The translations under genes were made by a program, and so were the position numbers. 13,111 nucleotides of DNA from an uncultured archaeon. GTDB lineage: Archaea; Altiarchaeota; Altiarchaeia; IMC4; SCGC-AAA252-I15. Positions within the stretch are counted from its first letter, which is position 1. The number at the start of each line of letters is the position of its first letter. This document shows positions 1 through 6,972 of this stretch, in pieces. The notes under the pieces are model-generated. The model was not told the origin of the DNA and did no database searches. It saw only the letters and a list, made by a program, of their open reading frames with translations. Where the stretch lies: assembly GCA_964587725.1 (NCBI GenBank), contig CAZPLO010000011.1:1-13111 (forward strand), written 5' to 3'.

Positions 1-234
1 ATTGTAGCGGCCGACCAGTGCATACCGCCTGTGGCTGGGAACTGGACGGTCAACACCACATGCAACATAGTCGACACATTATATGATGTGCCCGCGCACC
101 TGATAATACAGGGCTCCGGCGTCGTGAACCTTACGGGCACCACCAACCTGAACTTCACCGACACCGCGCAGAAGATATACATCTGGTCCGGCGGCGCGTT
201 CAGAGTAGGGTCCGGCAGCGGAATAAACAAGTAA
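1..234 (+). CDS. 3' end (partial) of a probable secreted/surface protein; beta-rich C-terminal domain
   Basis: Frame 1 is open from base 1 (IVAADQCIPPVAGNWTVNTTCNIVDT...GSGSGINK*). It is Thr/Asn/Gly-rich with several N-x-T sequons (NWT, NTT, NLT, NFT) and a Cys pair, has GC-rich codon usage, and is followed by a T-rich tract. The product is inferred. Confidence 0.7.
   Translation: MVAADQCIPPVAGNWTVNTTCNIVDTLYDVPAHLIIQGSGVVNLTGTTNLNFTDTAQKIYIWSGGAFRVGSGSGINK
156..234 (+). repeat. Direct repeat copy 1 (79 bp), the functional 3' end of the upstream gene
   Basis: caccgacaccgcgcagaagatatacatctggtccggcggcgcgttcagagtagggtccggcagcggaataaacaagtaa; encodes TDTAQKIYIWSGGAFRVGSGSGINK*. Confidence 0.97.
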
Positions 235-239
235 CCCAG

Positions 240-290
240 ATTATTGTTAATTATCCCGTTTTTTTATTATTTATTGTTGTTTTTGTTTCA
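240..290 (+). terminator. T-rich archaeal terminator-like tract
   Basis: Several oligo-T runs directly after the stop codon at 234. Confidence 0.5.
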
Positions 291-320
291 ATTATTGGGT
301 GGCTCAGGGGAAACAACAAC

Positions 321-351
321 CTTTTAAATCCATGTTAACTATATTTAACAT
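321..351 (+). promoter_or_regulatory. TATA box plus palindromic operator candidate upstream of the ATPase
   Basis: cttttaaa at 321-328 is preceded by an A-rich stretch; a perfect inverted repeat ATGTTAA-N6-TTAACAT lies at 332-351. Confidence 0.55.
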
Positions 352-370
352 AAAATCGATATTGGGTTAA

Positions 371-1630
371 GTGGATATGCCGGAAATTAATGAGGCTCTG
401 CGGGATTTCAACCCCTGGTGGAAGAGAGAGTTCACGGTAGAGTTCAGGGAAAGAGACGTCTACACAGAAATCAGAAAGTTCATGCACCTGCGGCAGATAA
501 TAGCCGTCACCGGACTACGGAGGGTTGGGAAAACAACCCTGATGCTTAAACTAGCAGAGGACGCGATAGCCGATGGCATAGGCCCGCGAAACATAATCTA
601 CCTCTCCTTTGACGAATTCAGGGATGTGGAGGTAAGGACGGTCATTAAAGAATATGAAAAGCTAATGGAGAAAAACATCAGAGACGGGGAATACCTACTC
701 CTACTGGATGAAATACAGAAACTTAGCGACTGGGAGAACCAGATAAAAACAATCTACGACACCTTCGGGAAAAACATTAAAATAATACTCTCCGGGTCAG
801 AGTCCCTGTTCATAAAACAGAAGTCAAAGGAGACACTCGCCGGCAGAATATTCGAGTTCAAAGTCGAACAACTATCATTCAGGGAATTCCTCGCATTCAA
901 AGAAACCGAGTACGAACCCATAGGGCTCTACGAGAGAGAATTATCCCGGTTATTCAACGAATACACCCTAACCCTCGGCTTCCCGGAACTAGTCGGCGTC
1001 AAAGAAAAAGATGTCATAAGGAAATACATCCAAGAAAACATAATCGAAAAAGTCGTCTACAGAGACATACAACAGCTGTTCAACGTCAGAGACATATCCC
1101 TGGTGGAGTCCCTGATGAACATACTCATCGAGGAACCCGGGCAGTTACTACAGATTTCGGATTTAGCTAAGGAACTGAAGATTTCACGACAGACTCTCTC
1201 AAACTACCTAACATACTTGGAGGAATCCTTCCTCGTCAAAAAACTATATAACTTCTCGAGAAACAGGAGGAAAGCGGAGAGAAAACTGAAAAAATACTAT
1301 CCTGCCGTAATCTCAACCAACCTACTATTCAAGGAAGACAGTCAATCCAAATCGAAGGTGTTTGAGTGGCTGGCAGTCAACCAACTTAAGGCAGAATTCT
1401 TCTGGAGAGACCCGTATAAAAATGAGGTTGACGTGGTCAAAGCCAACCAAAAAATCCTCCCCATCGAGATCAAATACGGGAAAACAGACGACAAAGGCTT
1501 AATAGCGTTCATGGAAAAATTCAAGGCAGACGAAGGGATAATACTATCAGCAGACAAAGAAGAAGAACGGAAAATCAACGGGAAAAAAATCTCCACCATA
1601 CCTGCCTTTAAATACCTGTTGTCTGCATAA
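371..1630 (+). CDS. AAA_14 / DUF4143-type ATP-binding protein (COG1373-like; ATPase + HTH + C-terminal PD-(D/E)xK-like domain)
   Basis: N-terminal NPWW, Walker A GLRRVGKTT, Walker B LLLLDEIQ, LSGS and LAGR motifs, GFPE, HTH-like LAKELKISRQTLSNYLTYLEESFL, and C-terminal EVDVV...PIEIK. The start may be ATG 377. Confidence 0.92.
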   Translation: MDMPEINEALRDFNPWWKREFTVEFRERDVYTEIRKFMHLRQIIAVTGLRRVGKTTLMLKLAEDAIADGIGPRNIIYLSFDEFRDVEVRTVIKEYEKLMEKNIRDGEYLLLLDEIQKLSDWENQIKTIYDTFGKNIKIILSGSESLFIKQKSKETLAGRIFEFKVEQLSFREFLAFKETEYEPIGLYERELSRLFNEYTLTLGFPELVGVKEKDVIRKYIQENIIEKVVYRDIQQLFNVRDISLVESLMNILIEEPGQLLQISDLAKELKISRQTLSNYLTYLEESFLVKKLYNFSRNRRKAERKLKKYYPAVISTNLLFKEDSQSKSKVFEWLAVNQLKAEFFWRDPYKNEVDVVKANQKILPIEIKYGKTDDKGLIAFMEKFKADEGIILSADKEEERKINGKKISTIPAFKYLLSA

Positions 1631-1647
1631 GAACCTAACCTCCACTC

Positions 1648-1726
1648 CACCGACACCGCGCAGAAGATATACATCTGGTCCGGCGGCGCGTTCAGGATAG
1701 GCTCCGGCAGCGGAATAAACAAGTAA
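1648..1726 (+). repeat. Direct repeat copy 2 (79 bp), orphan gene 3' end
   Basis: 76/79 identical to copy 1 (aga gta ggg -> agg ata ggc). Weaker similarity extends 11 bp further left (aacctccactc vs aacctgaactt). Confidence 0.97.
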
Positions 1727-1729
1727 GTA

Positions 1730-1773
1730 CTTTTTAAGGGGGTTATCATCAATATTAATGTACGGTACGTTAA
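1730..1773 (+). promoter_or_regulatory. Putative promoter/operator of hicBA
   Basis: ctttttaag TATA-like box at 1730-1738; near-perfect inverted repeat TTAATGTAC-G-GTACGTTAA at 1755-1773, just before the ATG. Confidence 0.45.
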
Positions 1774-1774
1774 A

Positions 1775-1996
1775 ATGTTGGTGAAGGTTGAGAGTTACTT
1801 CGACGGCGAATACTGGTGTGCCAGGGGTATAGGGGCGGACTTTTTTACTCAAGGCAAAACCCTGGATGAGCTGATGGACAATATACGGGAGGCTGCCGCC
1901 CTTCATTTCGAGGAAAAACTGAAACAGCATAAATCACTCAATATACTGGTTCTATCAGAGACAGAGGTAGACAGTGCCAAAGTTGCCGCAGGTTAG
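1775..1996 (+). CDS. hicB: HicB-family antitoxin (short form, no obvious C-terminal DNA-binding domain)
   Basis: DGEYWCA...FTQGKTLDELMDNIREAAALHFE matches the HicB partial RNase H fold motif; overlaps the downstream hicA by 23 nt. Confidence 0.88.
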   Translation: MLVKVESYFDGEYWCARGIGADFFTQGKTLDELMDNIREAAALHFEEKLKQHKSLNILVLSETEVDSAKVAAG

Positions 1997-2222
1997 TGGA
2001 AAAAAGCTAATCAAACTTCTAACAAGTTTAGACTATGTTGTGGTGAGACAGCGTGGAAGCCACATCAGACTGAAGAAAAGCAGTAAAACAGGGCCGCATA
2101 GCATCACGGTACCCTTACATGAAACTCTCGCTAAAGGAACACTGACTGACATCCTCTCCAAAATAAGCATATGGAATGAAATGCCTAAAGAGAATCTCCT
2201 TAACATGCTCAAGAAACTCTAA
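1974..2222 (+). CDS. hicA: HicA-family mRNA interferase toxin
   Basis: MPKLPQVSGKKLIKLL...VRQRGSHIRL...ITVPLHETLAKGTLTDIL; contains the conserved GSH catalytic motif and VPxH. Confidence 0.93.
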   Translation: MPKLPQVSGKKLIKLLTSLDYVVVRQRGSHIRLKKSSKTGPHSITVPLHETLAKGTLTDILSKISIWNEMPKENLLNMLKKL

Positions 2223-2239
2223 ACTGATAGTCCACCCTC

Positions 2240-2318
2240 CACCGACACCGCGCAGCGGATATACGTCTGGTCCGGCGGCGCGCTGAGGATAGGGTCGGAC
2301 AGCAGAATAAACAAGTGA
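2240..2318 (+). repeat. Direct repeat copy 3 (79 bp), most diverged orphan gene 3' end
   Basis: 68/79 identical to copy 1 and 69/79 to copy 2, no indels; encodes TDTAQRIYVWSGGALRIGSDSRINK* with a TGA stop. Confidence 0.95.
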
Positions 2319-2368
2319 TTTTTTGAAATAGTTTAAACTTTTGTTTAAATAATTTATAAAATACTTTT
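2319..2368. other. Very AT-rich tract (terminator of the displaced gene end and/or duplex-unwinding-like element)
   Basis: ttttttgaaatagtttaaacttttgtttaaataatttataaaatactttt directly follows copy 3. Confidence 0.45.
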
Positions 2369-2463
2369 CCACCGCTCTCTACCGCAAACTACTTTTAAAG
2401 AAACGAGAATGACTTACCGTACCCCGTGTGGTTGGCTGAATTCATCACAATCCACTTGGATCC

Positions 2464-2606
2464 GGGGTATAGGAGGACACAAAAAATGCAGTACATCGGA
2501 AGAACCGACATGGACGCGCCATCAGGGCCAAGGGTTTGGGGACGCAGATACGTCTACAACAGACTCGGCTTCGAGCCAAGCTTCATCTAAACCCCCCCTA
2601 TACCCC
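2464..2606. repeat. Inverted repeat bracketing the small ORF
   Basis: GGGGTATAGGAGG (2464-2476) is complementary to CCCCCTATACCCC (2594-2606) at 12/13 positions, 10 of them contiguous. Confidence 0.8.
2486..2590 (+). CDS. Unannotated small protein, 34 aa (MQYIGRTDMDAPSGPRVWGRRYVYNRLGFEPSFI)
   Basis: Strong SD AGGAGG at 2471-2476, A-rich spacer, ATG 2486, TAA 2588-2590. Uses host-like C-ending codons (tac, atc, gac, aac, ttc). TATA-like cttttaaa lies at 2392-2399. Confidence 0.55.
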   Translation: MQYIGRTDMDAPSGPRVWGRRYVYNRLGFEPSFI

Positions 2607-2642
2607 ACCATTATTTCTTTAAAGACGATGAATACATACGTG

Positions 2643-3752
2643 ATGAAACCCAGGGACATACTCCTGGCTGAGGAGACGCTGTTCAGGAACGAGGAAGTGT
2701 TCACCCCCGCCTACGTGCCTGAAGACTTCATACACCGGGACAGCCAGCTCAAGGAAATATCATTATCCCTGAAGCCGGGGCTACGGGGCGTGAACCCCGT
2801 CAACACCCTCATCCACGGCCCCCCCGGCACCGGTAAGACGACGGCCGTGAAATACCTGTTCAACGAAGTCAACAAAGTATCGGGGAAACTAGTGACAGTC
2901 TACGTGAACTGCGACGACTACAACACCCGCTTCAGCGTATTCTCCAGAATACACGAGGCCGTCTACGGCCACACGCCCCCGGACACGGGGAAGCCGTTGA
3001 ACGCGGTCAAGGAGAAGGTGTTCAGGAAACTCCAGAAGGAAGACAAAACCCTGGTCGTAGCGTTGGACGAGATAGACCAGCTGTTCCTCAACAAAACAGT
3101 CGACAAACTCATGCTGGACCTGCTGAAGGCGCACACAACCTACGGATACGACAAAATAGGCATCATCGGAGTCCTCATAGACGACTCCCTCCTGCTCGAC
3201 CTCGACCCGAAGGCGGCGAGCGTCTTCAACCCAGTGAAGGTCTACTTCCCCCCGTACGACCACCGGGAAGTCTCCGACATACTCGGGGTGAGGGTGAAAT
3301 ACGGCCTCTACGACGGCGTACTCCCCAAAGACCTGTTCGAGTACGCGGTCGACAAGACCGTTGAAGCCGGCGACCTCCGCCTGGGCATAGACCTGATAAA
3401 GAAGGCGGCGCTGCTGGCTGAACGCGACGCATCCAAGAAGATAACGCTGGAGCACATGGAAGAGGCCTACGAAGGCGGCAGCAAAACCCTTAACCTCGTG
3501 AAGGCTGTTTCATCGCTCGACGACACCGAAAAAGCCCTTCTTAAGGTGGTTTCAGAGCACGACGGCGCCCGTTCCGGCGAAGTGCAGAAGGCGTTAAAGG
3601 AGGTTACGGGCACGGGCGTGAAAAAATACAATCAGATGATTGCGAAGCTGGAGCACATCGGTTTGATAGAGACGGTGCCTGTGAAAGGCCGCGGCCAGAG
3701 CAGGGAGATACGGTTGAAATACTCTGCGGAAGACATTGTAGAAGCCATTTGA
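2643..3752 (+). CDS. cdc6: ORC1/Cdc6-type DNA replication initiation protein
   Basis: ETLFRNEEVFTPAYVPEDFIHRD, Walker A GPPGTGKT, YVNC, Walker B VVALDEID, FPPY, sensor-2 GDLR, C-terminal winged helix (GRGQSREI). Start set at ATG 2643 because TATA tttaaa lies about 25 nt upstream; ATG 2628 is an alternative. The 2409 extension does not look coding. Confidence 0.95.
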   Translation: MKPRDILLAEETLFRNEEVFTPAYVPEDFIHRDSQLKEISLSLKPGLRGVNPVNTLIHGPPGTGKTTAVKYLFNEVNKVSGKLVTVYVNCDDYNTRFSVFSRIHEAVYGHTPPDTGKPLNAVKEKVFRKLQKEDKTLVVALDEIDQLFLNKTVDKLMLDLLKAHTTYGYDKIGIIGVLIDDSLLLDLDPKAASVFNPVKVYFPPYDHREVSDILGVRVKYGLYDGVLPKDLFEYAVDKTVEAGDLRLGIDLIKKAALLAERDASKKITLEHMEEAYEGGSKTLNLVKAVSSLDDTEKALLKVVSEHDGARSGEVQKALKEVTGTGVKKYNQMIAKLEHIGLIETVPVKGRGQSREIRLKYSAEDIVEAI

Positions 3753-5697: not shown

Positions 5698-6972
5698 ATG
5701 GCCGTGATACAGTTGGCGCTGGATTTCATAAACCTCGACCGCGCGTTGAAGGCCGCTGAGGAGGCGGGAGACCCCGTGGACTGGCTGGAGGCGGGGACGC
5801 CGCTGATAAAAAGCGAGGGCTTGGATGCGGTCAGAGAGCTGAAGAAACGCTTCCCCTTGAAGACGATTGTTGCGGACATGAAGGTGATGGACGCAGGCCG
5901 CATAGAGGTGGAGATGGCCGCCAAGGCGGGGGCTGGCGTCGTGGACGTCTGCGGTCAGGCGCCGGACTCCACCATACTCGAGTGCGTGGAGGCCGCCCGC
6001 AACTACGGAGCCAAGATAGCGGTCGACTTGATAGGCGTGGAGGATGTTGTGGCTAGGGCCAAATTCGCGGAACATGCGGGAGCCGACTTCGTAACCGTCC
6101 ACACCGCCATAGACGAGCAGATGCAGTCCAAGACGCCGTTCGATAAGGTGAAGGCCGTAGCCGACGCAGTCAACATACCCGTGGCCGCGGCAGGCGGACT
6201 GAATTCGGAGTCCGTCGTCGACGCGCTTGAGGCCGGCGCCTCCATACTGGTGGTCGGAGGTGCGATAACCAAGGCGGAGGATATCGGTAAGGCCGCGGCC
6301 GACATACGCATGGCAGTTGAGTCGAAGAAGAAGGTGAAGGCCCGCCTGTTCAAACGCGGCGAAGACGTCGCCGAGATACTGTCGAAGGTGTCGGCAGCCA
6401 ACGTCTCCGACGCAATGCACCGCACCGGCGATTTAAGGGGGTTGAACCCTCTTCTAAAGGGAGTTAAGGCGTTCGGCCGCGCAGTCACCGTCCGCTCCTA
6501 CCCCGGCGACTGGGCTAAGCCTGTGGAGGCGATAGACGCAGCCGACGAAGGCGACGTGATAGTGATAACCGCAGGCGGCGTCGGCCCCGCAGTCTGGGGC
6601 GAGCTTGCGACGGAGTCTGCATTGCAGAAGAAGATAGCCGCTGTCGTCGTCGACGGAGCAGTCCGGGACACAGACGAAATACGCAGTCTCAAGCTTCCGG
6701 TTTACGCGAGACTGTCCACGCCCGCAGCCGGAGAACCGAAGGGGTTCGGTGAAATCAACGTTCCCATACGGGTCGGCGACGTCACAGTGAAGCCCGGCGA
6801 CTGGATATTGTGCGACGGAGACGGTGTCGTAGCGATACCGTCAGAGAAGGCGGTGGAGGTGGCCAACCGCGCCCAGGACGTGTTGGAGCGCGAGAACAGG
6901 ATACGGCGTGAAATCAGAGACGGAAGCTCCCTCGCCAAGGTAACCCACCTGCTCAGGTGGGAGAAGAAGTAA
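5698..6972 (+). CDS. hxlA: 3-hexulose-6-phosphate synthase fused to an RraA/MenG-like domain
   Basis: IQLALD, LEAGTPLIKSEG, ADMKVMDAG, VHTAIDEQ, AGGLN, VVGGAITKA (HPS barrel), followed by NVSDAM, GRAVTV, AVWGELA, VVDGAVRD, VKPGDWILCDGDGVVAIP (RraA). Confidence 0.93.
   Translation: MAVIQLALDFINLDRALKAAEEAGDPVDWLEAGTPLIKSEGLDAVRELKKRFPLKTIVADMKVMDAGRIEVEMAAKAGAGVVDVCGQAPDSTILECVEAARNYGAKIAVDLIGVEDVVARAKFAEHAGADFVTVHTAIDEQMQSKTPFDKVKAVADAVNIPVAAAGGLNSESVVDALEAGASILVVGGAITKAEDIGKAAADIRMAVESKKKVKARLFKRGEDVAEILSKVSAANVSDAMHRTGDLRGLNPLLKGVKAFGRAVTVRSYPGDWAKPVEAIDAADEGDVIVITAGGVGPAVWGELATESALQKKIAAVVVDGAVRDTDEIRSLKLPVYARLSTPAAGEPKGFGEINVPIRVGDVTVKPGDWILCDGDGVVAIPSEKAVEVANRAQDVLERENRIRREIRDGSSLAKVTHLLRWEKK

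Follow-up and report, generated by a model that had tools for sequence, protein, structure and literature searches.

Toxin-antitoxin and ATPase cassettes between repeated gene ends in an uncultured archaeal lineage

Few prokaryotic genes are as mobile as toxin-antitoxin pairs and other small defence genes, most of which carry no mobility machinery of their own. Several systems in which such genes, or other small pieces of DNA, accumulate between repeats have been described. Integron gene cassettes are associated with the integrase IntI and the sites attI and attC, and a repeat of 60–140 nt lies closely behind each cassette; archaeal integrons have reportedly been described by Ghaly and co-workers in 2022. 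Non-autonomous elements bounded by att sites include the cis-mobilizable elements that arise by accretion (streptococcal ICEs), tycheposon satellites, and Xer-dependent modules. Insertion of restriction-modification genes with a long target duplication is said to have been noted by Nobusato and co-workers in 2000.

Restriction-modification inserts of this kind were later surveyed by Furuta, Abe & Kobayashi (2010; PMC2853133). The portions of that paper drawn on here describe inserts that have a target duplication of more than 30 bp, lack mobility genes and arise by a mechanism given as unknown. In the same portions, a life cycle of insertion, amplification via the repeats, and release is proposed, and the screen is described as having retained no archaeal case. 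Archaeal elements that do bear an integrase are treated by Krupovic et al. (2019; PMC6563490), and according to the parts of that work drawn on here they target tRNA genes or the 3'-distal parts of protein genes.

A cassette array bounded by gene ends

The locus described here lies at the start of the window, which is the whole stretch of 13,111 nucleotides that was analysed, from the metagenome-assembled genome (MAG) of an uncultured archaeon. Its features are as follows.

1–234, + strand: 3' end of a gene for a large, probably extracellular protein; 77 codons plus TAA, open from base 1
145–234, + strand: repeat copy 1, within the gene; last 29 codons plus TAA
235–376, + strand: leader of cassette 1; T-run at 260–266 just past the gene stop, AT-rich TATA-like stretch at 341–349
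377–1630, + strand: cargo 1, ATPase with AAA_14 and DUF4143 matches (Pfam E 2.8e-33 and 1.3e-21) and an HTH region
1637–1726, + strand: repeat copy 2, displaced untranslated gene end, ending in TAA
1727–1774, + strand: leader of cassette 2; T-run at 1731–1735, AT-rich stretches at 1731–1738 and 1751–1758
1775–1996, + strand: cargo 2a, HicB-like antitoxin (Pfam E 7.6e-4, 20.1 bits against a cut-off of 27)
1974–2222, + strand: cargo 2b, HicA toxin, RNase-type, of a toxin-antitoxin pair (PF07927, E 2.5e-14, 53.5 bits against a cut-off of 27)
2229–2318, + strand: repeat copy 3, displaced gene end and the most diverged, 80–87% identical to copy 1, ending in TGA
2319–2642, no strand: AT-rich spacer (GC 0.43) between the array and orc1/cdc6; T-run at 2319–2324
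2643–3752, + strand: Orc1/Cdc6, the first core gene past the array (Pfam Cdc6_lid, AAA_16, Cdc6_C)

A repeat search of the window returned the gene end as one family of three direct copies, with start-to-start spacings of 1492 and 592; the cassette ends lack inverted terminal repeats. Over 90 nt, copies 2 and 3 are respectively 93% and 80% identical to copy 1. BLAST alignments give 96.2% identity over 79 nt (156–234 against 1648–1726), 88.8% over 80 nt (1645–1724 against 2237–2316) and 87.0% over 77 nt (156–232 against 2240–2316). Strong identity begins at 156, 1648 and 2240 with a 16-mer common to all three copies in the alignment; to the left of this edge copies 1 and 2 are still alike (8/11 nt). 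On the other side the homology ends at the stop codon, which is TAA, TAA and TGA in copies 1, 2 and 3. The alignment agrees with the original prediction of three 79-bp copies that share a left edge and lose homology at the stop. A comparison with the whole assembly (1.56 Mb), which had been suggested as a check, matched the 90-mer at the three array copies only (E 1e-41, 2e-33 and 2e-21; the next match has E 0.12). No near relative of the gene end was found in genome or metagenome records, and the gene is missing from close relatives.

Position 1 of the window is the start of the contig; consequently, the 5' part of the host gene is missing. The truncated gene is taken as real because a relative (G018) carries a homologue in an open frame of 508 aa, the last 74 residues of which are 65% identical to the window frame 1–231. 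This homologue is Cys-rich and full of N-x-S/T sites, a composition suggesting that the truncated gene probably encodes an extracellular or surface-type protein. Neither the truncated product nor the homologue has a Pfam match, so the term surface protein rests on composition. The repeats are true coding 3' ends, being in frame, with the stop codon kept and residues that match the homologue. The copy adjoining the gene body keeps the gene whole, and the two downstream copies are displaced, untranslated ends. Orphan gene ends of this type are readily annotated as small ORFs or pseudogenes. Copy 3 is probably the resident, oldest gene end; it is read in this way because the distal copy and its flank are native in a sister case described below (L109). 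The spacer at 2319–2642 would presumably be the native downstream region of the gene, and it leads to an orc1/cdc6 gene with orthologues in 19/20 other genomes of the family.

Both cassettes have the same layout, in which a T-run and an AT-rich, promoter-like stretch are followed by the cargo and, a few bases on, by the next repeat. The T-runs and AT-rich stretches of the leaders, which were located by eye, are putative terminators and promoters. The ATPase has an alternative GTG start at 371, and homologues at 52–72% identity are encoded by 80 metagenome loci. The second unit has the composition of a HicAB pair, with a HicA above the Pfam cut-off and a small, overlapping HicB-like gene upstream; because the Pfam score of the latter is below the cut-off, its identity leans on its position and on the overlap with hicA. 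The stop codons of the cargo end at 1630 and 2222, each 17 nt short of the point (1648 and 2240) at which strong identity begins. The cargo has a GC content of 0.42–0.44 (0.42 for 235–1636); that of the gene end and of cdc6 is 0.56, and the remainder of the window lies at 0.585. A Pfam scan of the two units (1492 bp for the ATPase unit and 592 bp for the hicB-hicA unit) found only the ATPase and HicB/HicA, and no recombinase, transposase or integrase. These observations support the description of both units as foreign, compact, single-operon cassettes without a recombinase. They also bear out what had been anticipated of the cargo, namely the 17-bp distance to the next copy, an AT content above that of the core genes, unit sizes of 1492 and 592 bp, and the lack of an encoded recombinase.

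The window begins at a contig end, 155 nt ahead of the strong identity in copy 1, the MAG is assembled in 48 contigs with N-gaps, and contigs assembled from single runs end at a shared 48-nt block. Such features would be expected if separate loci or strain variants had been mis-joined via the repeat. However, in independent per-run contigs from four runs of a single study, every junction is reproduced apart from that across this block, which is the exact stretch common to copies 1 and 2 and has about twofold depth in 3/4 runs, with all three parts of the array at equal depth. The copies differ (93% and 80–87%), and the block, at 48 nt the longest exact one, is shorter than the apparent assembler k of 55, a value inferred from 55-nt overlaps beside the N-gaps. 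Contigs spanning 174–1677 and 1666–3200 are present in three of the four runs and nearly so in the fourth. A closed genome and unrelated assemblies also show the same footprint, and an artefact is hardly credible. In the per-run contigs, the ATPase unit and its flanks have the same depth, indicating that the insertion is fixed in these samples. These contigs yielded no joint of an excised circle, and neither an empty allele nor a different cargo turned up at this locus.

Recurrence of the footprint

Repeat-flanked cassettes, the cargo of which was named by Pfam, occur at at least six other loci of the same MAG. Contig C25 holds a three-copy array with a DUF6036 nucleotidyltransferase unit and a 1493-bp ATPase unit, and in C37 a 60-nt repeat flanks a hicBA pair in the end of an amine-oxidase gene. 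Two cassettes are found in C5 and a PIN cassette in C20, while in C3 a 33-nt repeat at 100% identity flanks an RHH/ParE-like pair between two convergent gene ends.

The frequency of this geometry was surveyed in several sets of loci. In the MAG, 3/5 hicA loci and 2/4 loci of DUF4143 ATPases are flanked. In relatives, hicA loci were scored as flanked when direct repeats of at least 24 nt and at least 85% identity lay at a spacing of 250–3000, and the counts are 19/51 unique hicA loci (11/29 and 8/23, with one locus counted twice), which include 3/11 in a closed, one-contig genome, and 6/29 DUF4143 loci. Among the metagenome homologues of the ATPase, 11 of the 54 informative loci are flanked, 3 of these 11 resembling one locus from three samples; the other 26 of the 80 loci were skipped as their flanks are too short. 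By comparison, repeats flank 9/300 random windows of the MAG, 0/53 windows around two core genes of the relatives, and 2/77 pseudo-gene windows within the same metagenome loci. Fisher p values for flanked cargo loci against controls are 1e-11, 2e-7, 8e-4 and 1.4e-3, and 1.7e-3, for loci that were the best-scoring matches plus those of genomes picked for many hits, a choice that was blind to repeats but not random. The results support the recurrence of the repeat-cassette geometry throughout the genome and across the order, far above controls, and the array of ATPase and hicBA represents a single example of a footprint that is general in this lineage of archaea.

Flanked cargo includes hicAB, DUF4143 ATPases, PIN, MNT/HEPN-like and RelE/ParE-like genes. 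The direct repeats, of 27–112 nt, are copies of whatever the cassette landed in, mostly gene 3' ends and also gene 5' ends and interiors, with a tRNA in 1 of about 30 families examined. Tandem arrays of three copies with common borders also occur at L113, L114, L189 and C25. The borders are sharp, as the flanks are dissimilar in 17/18 pairs, the exception being the tRNA case (L091). The identity of repeat pairs grades continuously between 100% and about 80%, with near-identical pairs (97–100%) at L081 (111 nt), L090 (76 nt), L093 (88 nt) and C3 (33 nt). The similarity halts at the stop codon in the window array, L109, L204 and C5a, while in L090, L093 and C3 the 100%-identical repeats extend beyond the stop into intergenic DNA. 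Copy differences in six pairs, counted by eye, comprise about 13 silent and 20 replacement changes, which fit the decay of one copy and the meeting of two alleles equally. No DNA similarity was found between cassettes at different sites, so no recently spreading element has been caught. In one case (L100) the displaced copy of a gene 5' end has no start codon, which fits no simple model.

Two other cases, the sister case L109 and the tRNA case L091, are informative with regard to the origin of the repeats. At L109, the repeat measures 112 nt (93% identity) and reaches as far as the stop codon; the gene has TAA and the displaced copy TGA, as in the window array. Three genomes of the same genus have the corresponding empty site, in which the gene (91–93% aa identity) carries one repeat copy and no cassette. 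The native part of L109 is the displaced copy with its flank, and this displaced copy bears derived replacement changes. At L091, the displaced tRNA part is without a 22-nt insert that is present in the intact gene, which means that the repeat copy came from elsewhere and not from a local duplication. This difference fits a repeat brought from another lineage and not a plain target duplication.

Recombinases and routes of mobility

The original prediction held that the array is integron-like, with a coding sequence as att site, and that a dedicated recombinase acts in trans. The MAG, which is 92% complete, contains one weak XerA-like match to a tyrosine recombinase (contig C27; 104 bits against a cut-off of 220), which scores 54 bits with the integron integrase model (cut-off 265). 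No serine recombinase or TnpB was found in the MAG at this completeness; mobile elements, which may encode a recombinase, often escape binning. Most genomes of the order have 0–2 tyrosine recombinases. Downstream of the array, the window contains no integrase beside it and no IntI-type integrase with attI; the upstream side is cut by the contig end. A simple k-mer count, which would miss a degenerate or structural signal, found no common motif in 24 repeat families. The z-scores of DNA folding are -1.15 and -2.26 for copy 1, -0.08 and -1.31 for copy 2, and -2.46 and -3.36 for copy 3. With copies 1 and 2 folding unremarkably and the repeat being the coding end of a gene, an identity as attC was rejected. 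An integron was likewise set aside, as the window has no IntI or attI and the repeats are not attC palindromes, and a classical integrative element was rejected as neither unit encodes its own integrase. A diversity-generating retroelement was rejected as well: no reverse transcriptase is present among the scanned ORFs of the window, and the copy differences involve all bases. With no integrase nearby, no attC fold, no common motif and varied targets, the integron-like part of the prediction was not upheld, nor was the dedicated recombinase; the predicted geometry and mobility stood, given the recurrence above controls and the empty sites of L109.

Two described patterns are matched more closely. 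The array has direct repeats from the 3' part of a target gene that is regenerated, as for attL and attR. It also has several attributes of insertion with long target duplication, with repeats of 79–90 nt (more than 30 bp) that are absent elsewhere in the genome, units of less than 20 kb, and no transposase or integrase; the further attribute of an empty site is seen for L109, in three genomes of the same genus. The explanation favoured here, at roughly even chances of being right, is that selfish or defence cassettes inserted with long target duplication and that the array grew by recombination inside the repeat. Two foreign single-operon cassettes would have inserted in the 3' end of the gene, each insertion being accompanied by a duplication of the target, the last 26–30 codons of the gene up to the stop. 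Recombination inside the repeated segment would be guided by homology, with no recombinase reading a conserved core. A cassette carrying one repeat copy, whether from a circle looped out between flanking repeats or from the DNA of a related strain, may recombine with the resident gene end, which would regenerate the gene and shift the old end downstream. Repeated rounds would yield a tandem array with identical repeat borders. The hicBA unit may have come first, since its distal copy is 13–20% diverged, and the ATPase unit later, since its copies differ by 4–7%. Homology-guided integration leaves the origin of the first repeat pair at a site unexplained.

Other routes would produce parts of the same pattern. 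The common borders around different cargos in the window array, L114 and C25 would likewise result if cleavage were site-specific, and the case against a recombinase is therefore indirect. Also worth weighing are non-autonomous mini integrative elements that use the gene end as att site, with a site-specific recombinase (tyrosine or other) supplied in trans by the cell or a helper, and whose arrays re-use the regenerated att. The tRNA case has the classic layout of such elements, with a tRNA 3' part and a displaced copy that differs by the 22-nt insert, and the MAG does encode one XerA-like recombinase. Archaeal integrase elements, in the parts of PMC6563490 drawn on here, use the 3' parts of protein genes, supply the stop and form arrays. 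However, no recombinase lies within the array or beside it in the window, the 24 repeat families have no common core, and all but one of the approximately 30 families are from sites other than tRNA, among them gene 5' ends and interiors, so that many different specificities would be needed for the many targets. In G033, G045, G014 and G003, all incomplete genomes, flanked cassettes are present and a tyrosine recombinase was not found. This route is considered unlikely.

Homology-facilitated illegitimate recombination is a process known from bacterial transformation. If it acted on gene flow between strains, no mobile element would be needed: a donor gene end with its cassette would be joined homologously on the gene side and illegitimately upstream of the resident stop, which would leave a duplicated end. 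Since lineages have coding DNA in common but not the DNA downstream of it, such gene flow explains why similarity ends at the stop in the window array, L109, L204 and C5a, and it explains the silent differences and the TAA and TGA stops of the in-gene and native copies, while allowing many targets with no recombinase. It is nevertheless quite improbable, as two independent illegitimate joints are not expected to fall within about 10 nt (window) or at the same base (L114, C25), and it does not account for the repeats of 100% identity that continue into intergenic DNA beyond the stop. A true target-site duplication, made by an enzyme through staggered cuts tens of bases apart with gap filling and later divergence, accounts for the many pairs at 97–100% with sharp borders (L081, L090, L093, C3), for the continuum of identity, and for the derived replacement changes in the displaced copy of L109, as decay predicts. 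Against it, the repeats vary from 27 to 112 nt, which implies no ruler, the displaced copy of L091 lacks the 22-nt insert, one set of borders for two cargos would require site choice too, and the cassettes encode no candidate enzyme; this makes it a very poor prospect.

Insertion with long target duplication, followed by recombination in the repeat, may have a wider meaning. It is tentatively suggested, as a possibility of less than even standing, that in this lineage and in the metagenome hosts it forms a general route, free of transposases and integrases, by which toxin-antitoxin and defence genes move. A minimal cassette of terminator, promoter and cargo would travel with a copy of its last host sequence, loop out between the flanking repeats, and re-enter any genome sharing that sequence, and gene ends would thereby turn into accreting cassette arrays.

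Comparison with known systems

The footprint bears on the old question of how toxin-antitoxin and small defence genes move without machinery. It can be counted, as target duplications of 27–112 nt with sharp borders and tandem arrays, and this makes the question of mobility testable. About one in three hicA loci and one in five loci of DUF4143 ATPases show it, in one archaeal lineage and on unrelated metagenome contigs, as opposed to 0–3% in three control sets. In uncultured archaea the cassettes serve as markers of recent gene flow. If the route free of transposases and integrases is true, it would functionally be an integron without integrase or attC, and would provide a mechanism for the long-noted, unexplained mobility of these genes.

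Similar to integrons, the arrays consist of small, mostly co-oriented cassettes that often encode toxin-antitoxin pairs, and the repeats within an array are alike. In contrast to integrons, no integrase-attI platform is seen, the repeats are pieces of host genes and not imperfect palindromes, the cassettes have AT-rich upstream regions of their own, and many short arrays are found at many loci in place of one platform. The att-bounded non-autonomous elements share with the present cassettes the integrase-less DNA between att-like direct repeats and the tandem accretion at a gene end; they depend on a known partner or an Xer/dif core, whereas neither a partner nor a common core was found here.

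As described in the parts of PMC6563490 drawn on here, integrated elements of archaea likewise have repeats from the 3' part of the target, an intact gene with the stop supplied at the junction, and tandem arrays through re-use of the site. Those elements are kilobases in size with their own integrase or casposase, whereas the units here are single operons without a recombinase, and the targets here include gene starts and interiors, with one tRNA family among those examined. The restriction-modification inserts, as far as the portions of PMC2853133 drawn on here describe them, resemble the present cassettes in that a selfish "addiction" gene set without a mobility gene lies between direct repeats of more than 30 bp, which are a single copy in the empty genome (here for L109), occur nowhere else in the genome, and frequently overlap with an adjacent gene at its 3' end. 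Unlike those inserts, the cargo here consists of toxin-antitoxin pairs and a DUF4143 ATPase, the hosts are archaea, the units are 0.5–1.6 kb in tandem arrays with shared repeat borders, and the footprint touches between about a fifth and a third of the loci in a cargo family.

The cassette array and its host gene

The metagenome-assembled genome (MAG) that contains the window consists of 48 contigs (1.56 Mb) and is 92% complete; the window comprises the leading 13,111 bases of its contig C11. The left end of the window holds a truncated gene and two small units of foreign-looking cargo, arranged as follows.

Features of the array in the window (T-runs from sequence reading)
base 1 to TAA at 232-234: truncated host-gene frame, open throughout
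145-234: direct repeat, copy 1 (repeat search)
260-266: T-run after copy 1
377-1630: AAA_14 + DUF4143 ATPase, between copies 1 and 2 (unit 1)
1637-1726: direct repeat, copy 2 (93%)
1731-1735: T-run after copy 2
1775-1996 / 1974-2222: HicB-like / HicA pair (hicBA), between copies 2 and 3 (unit 2)
2229-2318: direct repeat, copy 3 (80% over 90 nt)
2319-2324: T-run after copy 3

The original prediction described three copies of a gene end bracketing an ATPase and hicBA, and repeat search, BLAST and alignment agree on this anatomy. The copies are spaced 1492 and 592 nt apart and are the sole family of three direct copies reported in the window, with pairwise BLAST identities of 96%, 89% and 87% over cores of 79-80 nt. 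Alignment reveals both the common left edge and the loss of homology at the stop codon (TAA, TAA, TGA) that had been noted, and copy 2 carries an 11-nt leftward extension resembling copy 1. At positions 155, 204 and 205 copy 2 matches copy 3, and elsewhere it matches copy 1, a mosaic of few sites that would fit crossover or conversion between copies. The cargo is AT-richer, as anticipated: its GC content is 0.42-0.44, whereas the gene end and cdc6 have 0.56 and the remainder of the window 0.585. Neither unit encodes a recombinase. In a search of the whole assembly, the 90-mer matches three places, all of them in the array; the next match has an E value of 0.12. The array is followed by an AT-rich spacer of 324 nt (2319-2642) with a 34-codon ORF (2487-2590); since this spacer lies directly upstream of orc1/cdc6, it may contain a replication origin, with the cassette array beside it.

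A homologue of the host gene is present in genome G018 as a 508-aa open frame that is Cys-rich and contains many N-x-S/T sites. The last 74 residues of this protein are 65% identical to the frame in the window, and the G018 gene is followed by unrelated genes without repeats. As judged by sequence comparison, the truncated gene is a real gene. Neither protein has a Pfam match, so the label 'surface protein' rests on composition. The window repeat was found in 0 of 40 relatives by DNA search. A peptide-pattern scan of metagenome contigs for the gene end gave 598 pattern matches with none confirmed, and the corresponding scan of genome contigs recovered the G018 record only.

The assembly itself was also probed. 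Exact 55-nt overlaps flank the 100-N gaps of the MAG, which is why the assembler k seems to be 55; copies 1 and 2 share exact blocks of at most 48 nt. The stretch is present in four runs (X1-X4) of one microbial-mat study, which are not independent of the assembly because they may include its source. The per-run contigs span 1-185, 174-1677 and 1666-3200, the second being split in X4 into 174-289 and 301-1677, and they reach 190-780 nt further left than the first base of the window. The 48-nt block at 156-203 is a separate piece at approximately twice the surrounding depth in three runs (17 vs 7.5-10, 86 vs 45-50 and 173 vs 75-91) and at 6.7 vs 5-6 in the fourth, low-depth run, and the depth of the ATPase unit equals that of its flanks. 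Contig coverage and depth together indicate that the tandem arrangement predominates in the mat samples. No joints or skipped forms are listed among these contigs, in which circles or empty alleles would go unseen if rare. Within the ATPase gene, three of the four runs show single-base differences at 391 (T>C) and 582 (G>A), indicating strain-level variation within the mat study. Exact 55-nt duplicates lying 155 nt apart on either side of 100-N gaps (C1:215153, C4:82229, C25:8226 and C28:4648) were considered as biological repeats and rejected as scaffolding overlaps.

Repeat-flanked cassettes in the MAG and its relatives

Self-comparison of the genome identified further small units bounded by direct repeats, with cargo named by Pfam. 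Repeat pairs that proved to lie inside large genes, or to reflect paralogous domains, scaffold overlaps or a CRISPR array, were set aside.

Repeat-flanked units on other contigs of the MAG
C25: 61-67-nt repeat, 3 copies; DUF6036 nucleotidyltransferase unit + 1493-bp DUF4143 ATPase unit
C37: 60-nt repeat (93%), amine-oxidase gene 3' end; hicBA + small ORF
C5: 34-nt core reaching the stop; hicAB
C5: 39-nt repeat, SLOG gene end; RelE-like gene + antitoxin-like gene
C3: 33-nt repeat (100%) over the overlapping ends of two convergent genes; RHH/ParE-like pair
C20: 37-nt repeat; PIN cassette

Three of five hicA loci and two of four DUF4143 ATPase loci in the MAG are flanked. The C25 array occupies C25:1-2394 (L037), the contig beginning within copy 1. 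Its repeat includes an 8-bp stem, and the first three bases of the repeat are the stop codon of a 44-codon ORF. The left flank together with the beginning of copy 3 (2367-2394) recurs as a 28-nt piece at 790-817, a duplication that on its sequence suggests nested insertions. Rfam gave no matches in the 41 kb searched around the MAG repeats, that of C25 included, and ARAGORN found no tRNAs in five MAG loci, again including C25. In a search for empty sites, the beta-CASP gene had different neighbours in each of the nine relatives read, the amine-oxidase gene hosting the C37 cassette was not found in the same-genus genome searched, and the 424-aa gene that separates the C5 cassettes was not found in five genomes.

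Several other features of these contigs were observed. A CRISPR-like array (30-35-nt repeats, period ~66 nt) lies at C5:44068-46470, and three toxin-antitoxin loci are found within a few kb of it (cassettes at ~49.7, 52.3-52.9 and 54.2-54.8 kb), so that the region looks like a defence island. The hicA gene at C5:52349-52597 (L040:1850-2098) is detected as two Pfam pieces around an A-run; either the gene is a frameshifted pseudogene or there is an error in the sequencing. Contig C40 (6.4 kb) carries a 59-nt repeat (97%) near both ends (68-126 and 6373-6431), the right copy covering the end of an aminotransferase gene, and may represent a further repeat-bounded segment that the assembler split. 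C40 was also considered as a plasmid vehicle; this was rejected, as the adenylate kinase and aminotransferase genes on it show the contig to be chromosomal.

For the order (49 genomes), a hicA locus was scored as flanked if copies of a direct repeat, 24 nt or longer and 85% or more identical, lay on either side of the gene with a spacing of 250-3000 nt. Among the matches listed, a first set of 29 hicA loci contained 11 flanked loci, nine with repeats of 27-111 nt at spacings of 514-742 nt and two with longer repeats. A second set of 23 loci, from five genomes picked for many matches or for being closed, contained eight. As one locus is common to both sets, the total is 19 of 51 unique loci. 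The closed one-contig genome G026 has 3 of 11 hicA loci flanked. As controls, 300 random MAG windows gave 9 flanked cases, some of them being paralogues, CRISPR or cassettes, and 53 windows surrounding two core genes in relatives gave 0 (Fisher p = 1e-11 and 2e-7). For DUF4143 loci of relatives, 6 of 29 are flanked, five at spacings of 1406-1641 nt. The genomes of the phylum at 85% completeness or better number 29 and are mostly of the same order.

Metagenome contigs were scanned with the window ATPase, which listed 80 loci at 52-72% identity, 54 of them informative (at least 250 nt on either side). Eleven of these 54 are flanked, one as a three-copy array, and three of the eleven look like one locus from three samples. 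Pseudo-gene control windows from the same loci gave 2 of 77 (Fisher p = 0.0017). Both control windows with flanking repeats adjoin the ATPase gene (L186:4316-4363/6935-6982 and L221:1151-1185/2811-2843/3405-3439) and look like further cassettes or arrays, so the true background is probably lower. Counts and controls support a general recombinase-less cassette footprint in archaea.

Targets, borders and the proposed mechanism

The repeats derive mostly from gene 3' ends. Gene 5' ends are the target at L081 (111 nt, 100%) and L100, a gene interior at L113, where frames of 417 and 211 aa are split, and a tRNA at one locus, L091. Borders are sharp, and similarity of the flanks outside the repeats is absent in 17 of 18 pairs. 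As in the window, similarity ends at the stop codon at L109, L204 and C5a, and one base later at L074. L113, L114, L189 and C25 are arrays of three copies in which the borders are shared and the cargo differs. Cassettes at different sites have no DNA similarity beyond ~70% in coding parts, and no k-mer motif common to 24 repeat families was found beyond shuffles. L113 (G030:C40) is a two-cassette array (hicBA and RHH+PIN) with repeats at 1121-1150, 1927-1956 and 2460-2489 that encode an identical peptide at the end of the 417-aa frame and the start of the 211-aa frame; the two frames look like one split gene. Comparison of the G030 arrays with same-genus G046 showed the region to be replaced or too diverged. 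At L100, in closed genome G026, a 106-nt repeat of a gene 5' end (1815-1920 and 2498-2603) has the ATG of the functional copy just left of the repeat, within expected cassette DNA, and a displaced copy without a start codon. This layout is explained by none of the simple models.

The closest analogue of the window array is L109, a hicBA cassette between copies of a 112-nt repeat (93%) with TAA in the in-gene copy and TGA in the displaced copy, hicBA stopping 18 nt short of the latter. In three same-genus genomes the L109 gene (91-93% aa) has one repeat copy and no cassette, and it is the displaced copy and downstream flank that match them. Derived replacement changes are found in the displaced copy, and the in-gene copy has only silent ones. 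By analogy, copy 3 would be the resident gene end in the window; because it is also the most diverged, the hicBA unit would have arrived first and the ATPase unit later.

It is proposed that homology-guided recombination within the repeat would account for both array growth and cassette spread. This reading agrees with several observations: borders are shared within arrays, targets are many, a core is missing, in-gene and native copies differ by silent changes, and one copy looks foreign, at L091 (G045:C76). There, ARAGORN calls a 98-nt tRNA-Ser at 1737-1834 that by eye reads as tRNA-Phe (GAA), its anticodon followed by a 22-nt intron, and this insert is absent from the displaced 56-nt copy (1055-1110). 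In archaea, a few tens of bases can suffice for homologous recombination, and homologous sequences can be recombined by an archaeal plasmid integrase. The missing insert means that the displaced L091 copy is not a simple local duplication, and target duplication at staggered cuts, which would yield direct repeats at a cassette's ends, is very improbable. One-sided homologous plus illegitimate recombination with strain DNA is distinctly unlikely.

Movement of the cassettes by a site-specific recombinase acting in trans, as originally predicted, is also unlikely. The MAG has one Phage_integrase match, on contig C27 (weakly XerA-like, 104 bits vs a cut-off of 220), and no Resolvase or TnpB-type Zn-ribbon was found in it. 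Tyrosine recombinases number 0-2 in most genomes of the order, and four genomes, all incomplete, contain flanked cassettes with no tyrosine recombinase found. The anatomy put forward in the original prediction stands, as does its view that the cassettes are mobile and non-autonomous and either brought or created the replacement gene end. Its integron-like gene-capture system with a dedicated recombinase is not supported, given the lack of a common core and of a linked recombinase and the many different targets. Homology-guided recombination is the reading we prefer.

Other readings of the repeat were considered and rejected. For an integron/attC site, the single-strand folds of the repeat are unremarkable and there is no integrase platform; for a DGR-like repeat, there is no RT and no adenine bias. 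Stop read-through or C-terminal tagging was considered as the cargo stops (1628-1630, 2220-2222) are in frame with the next repeat and lie exactly 32 codons upstream of the stop of that repeat (1724-1726, 2316-2318). An in-frame cargo stop is also found at L109 and not at L074, L090, L093 or C5a, and 3 of 7 cassettes is the chance level (hand count).

Relation to known systems

A literature search found no description of long target duplications around toxin-antitoxin or DUF4143 cassettes in archaea, and supplementary tables may list small integrase-less elements. Beyond the original prediction, the survey places the array in a group of similar events that hit many different targets and have neither a common core nor a linked recombinase. 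According to PMC2853133, restriction-modification genes of bacteria undergo insertion with long target duplication by a mechanism that is unknown, and the authors' screen retained no archaeal case. The surveyed events match this class. The archaeal integrase-borne elements of PMC6563490 are alike in using 3'-distal parts of protein genes and in forming arrays, whereas the cassettes surveyed here lack an integrase and differ in size.
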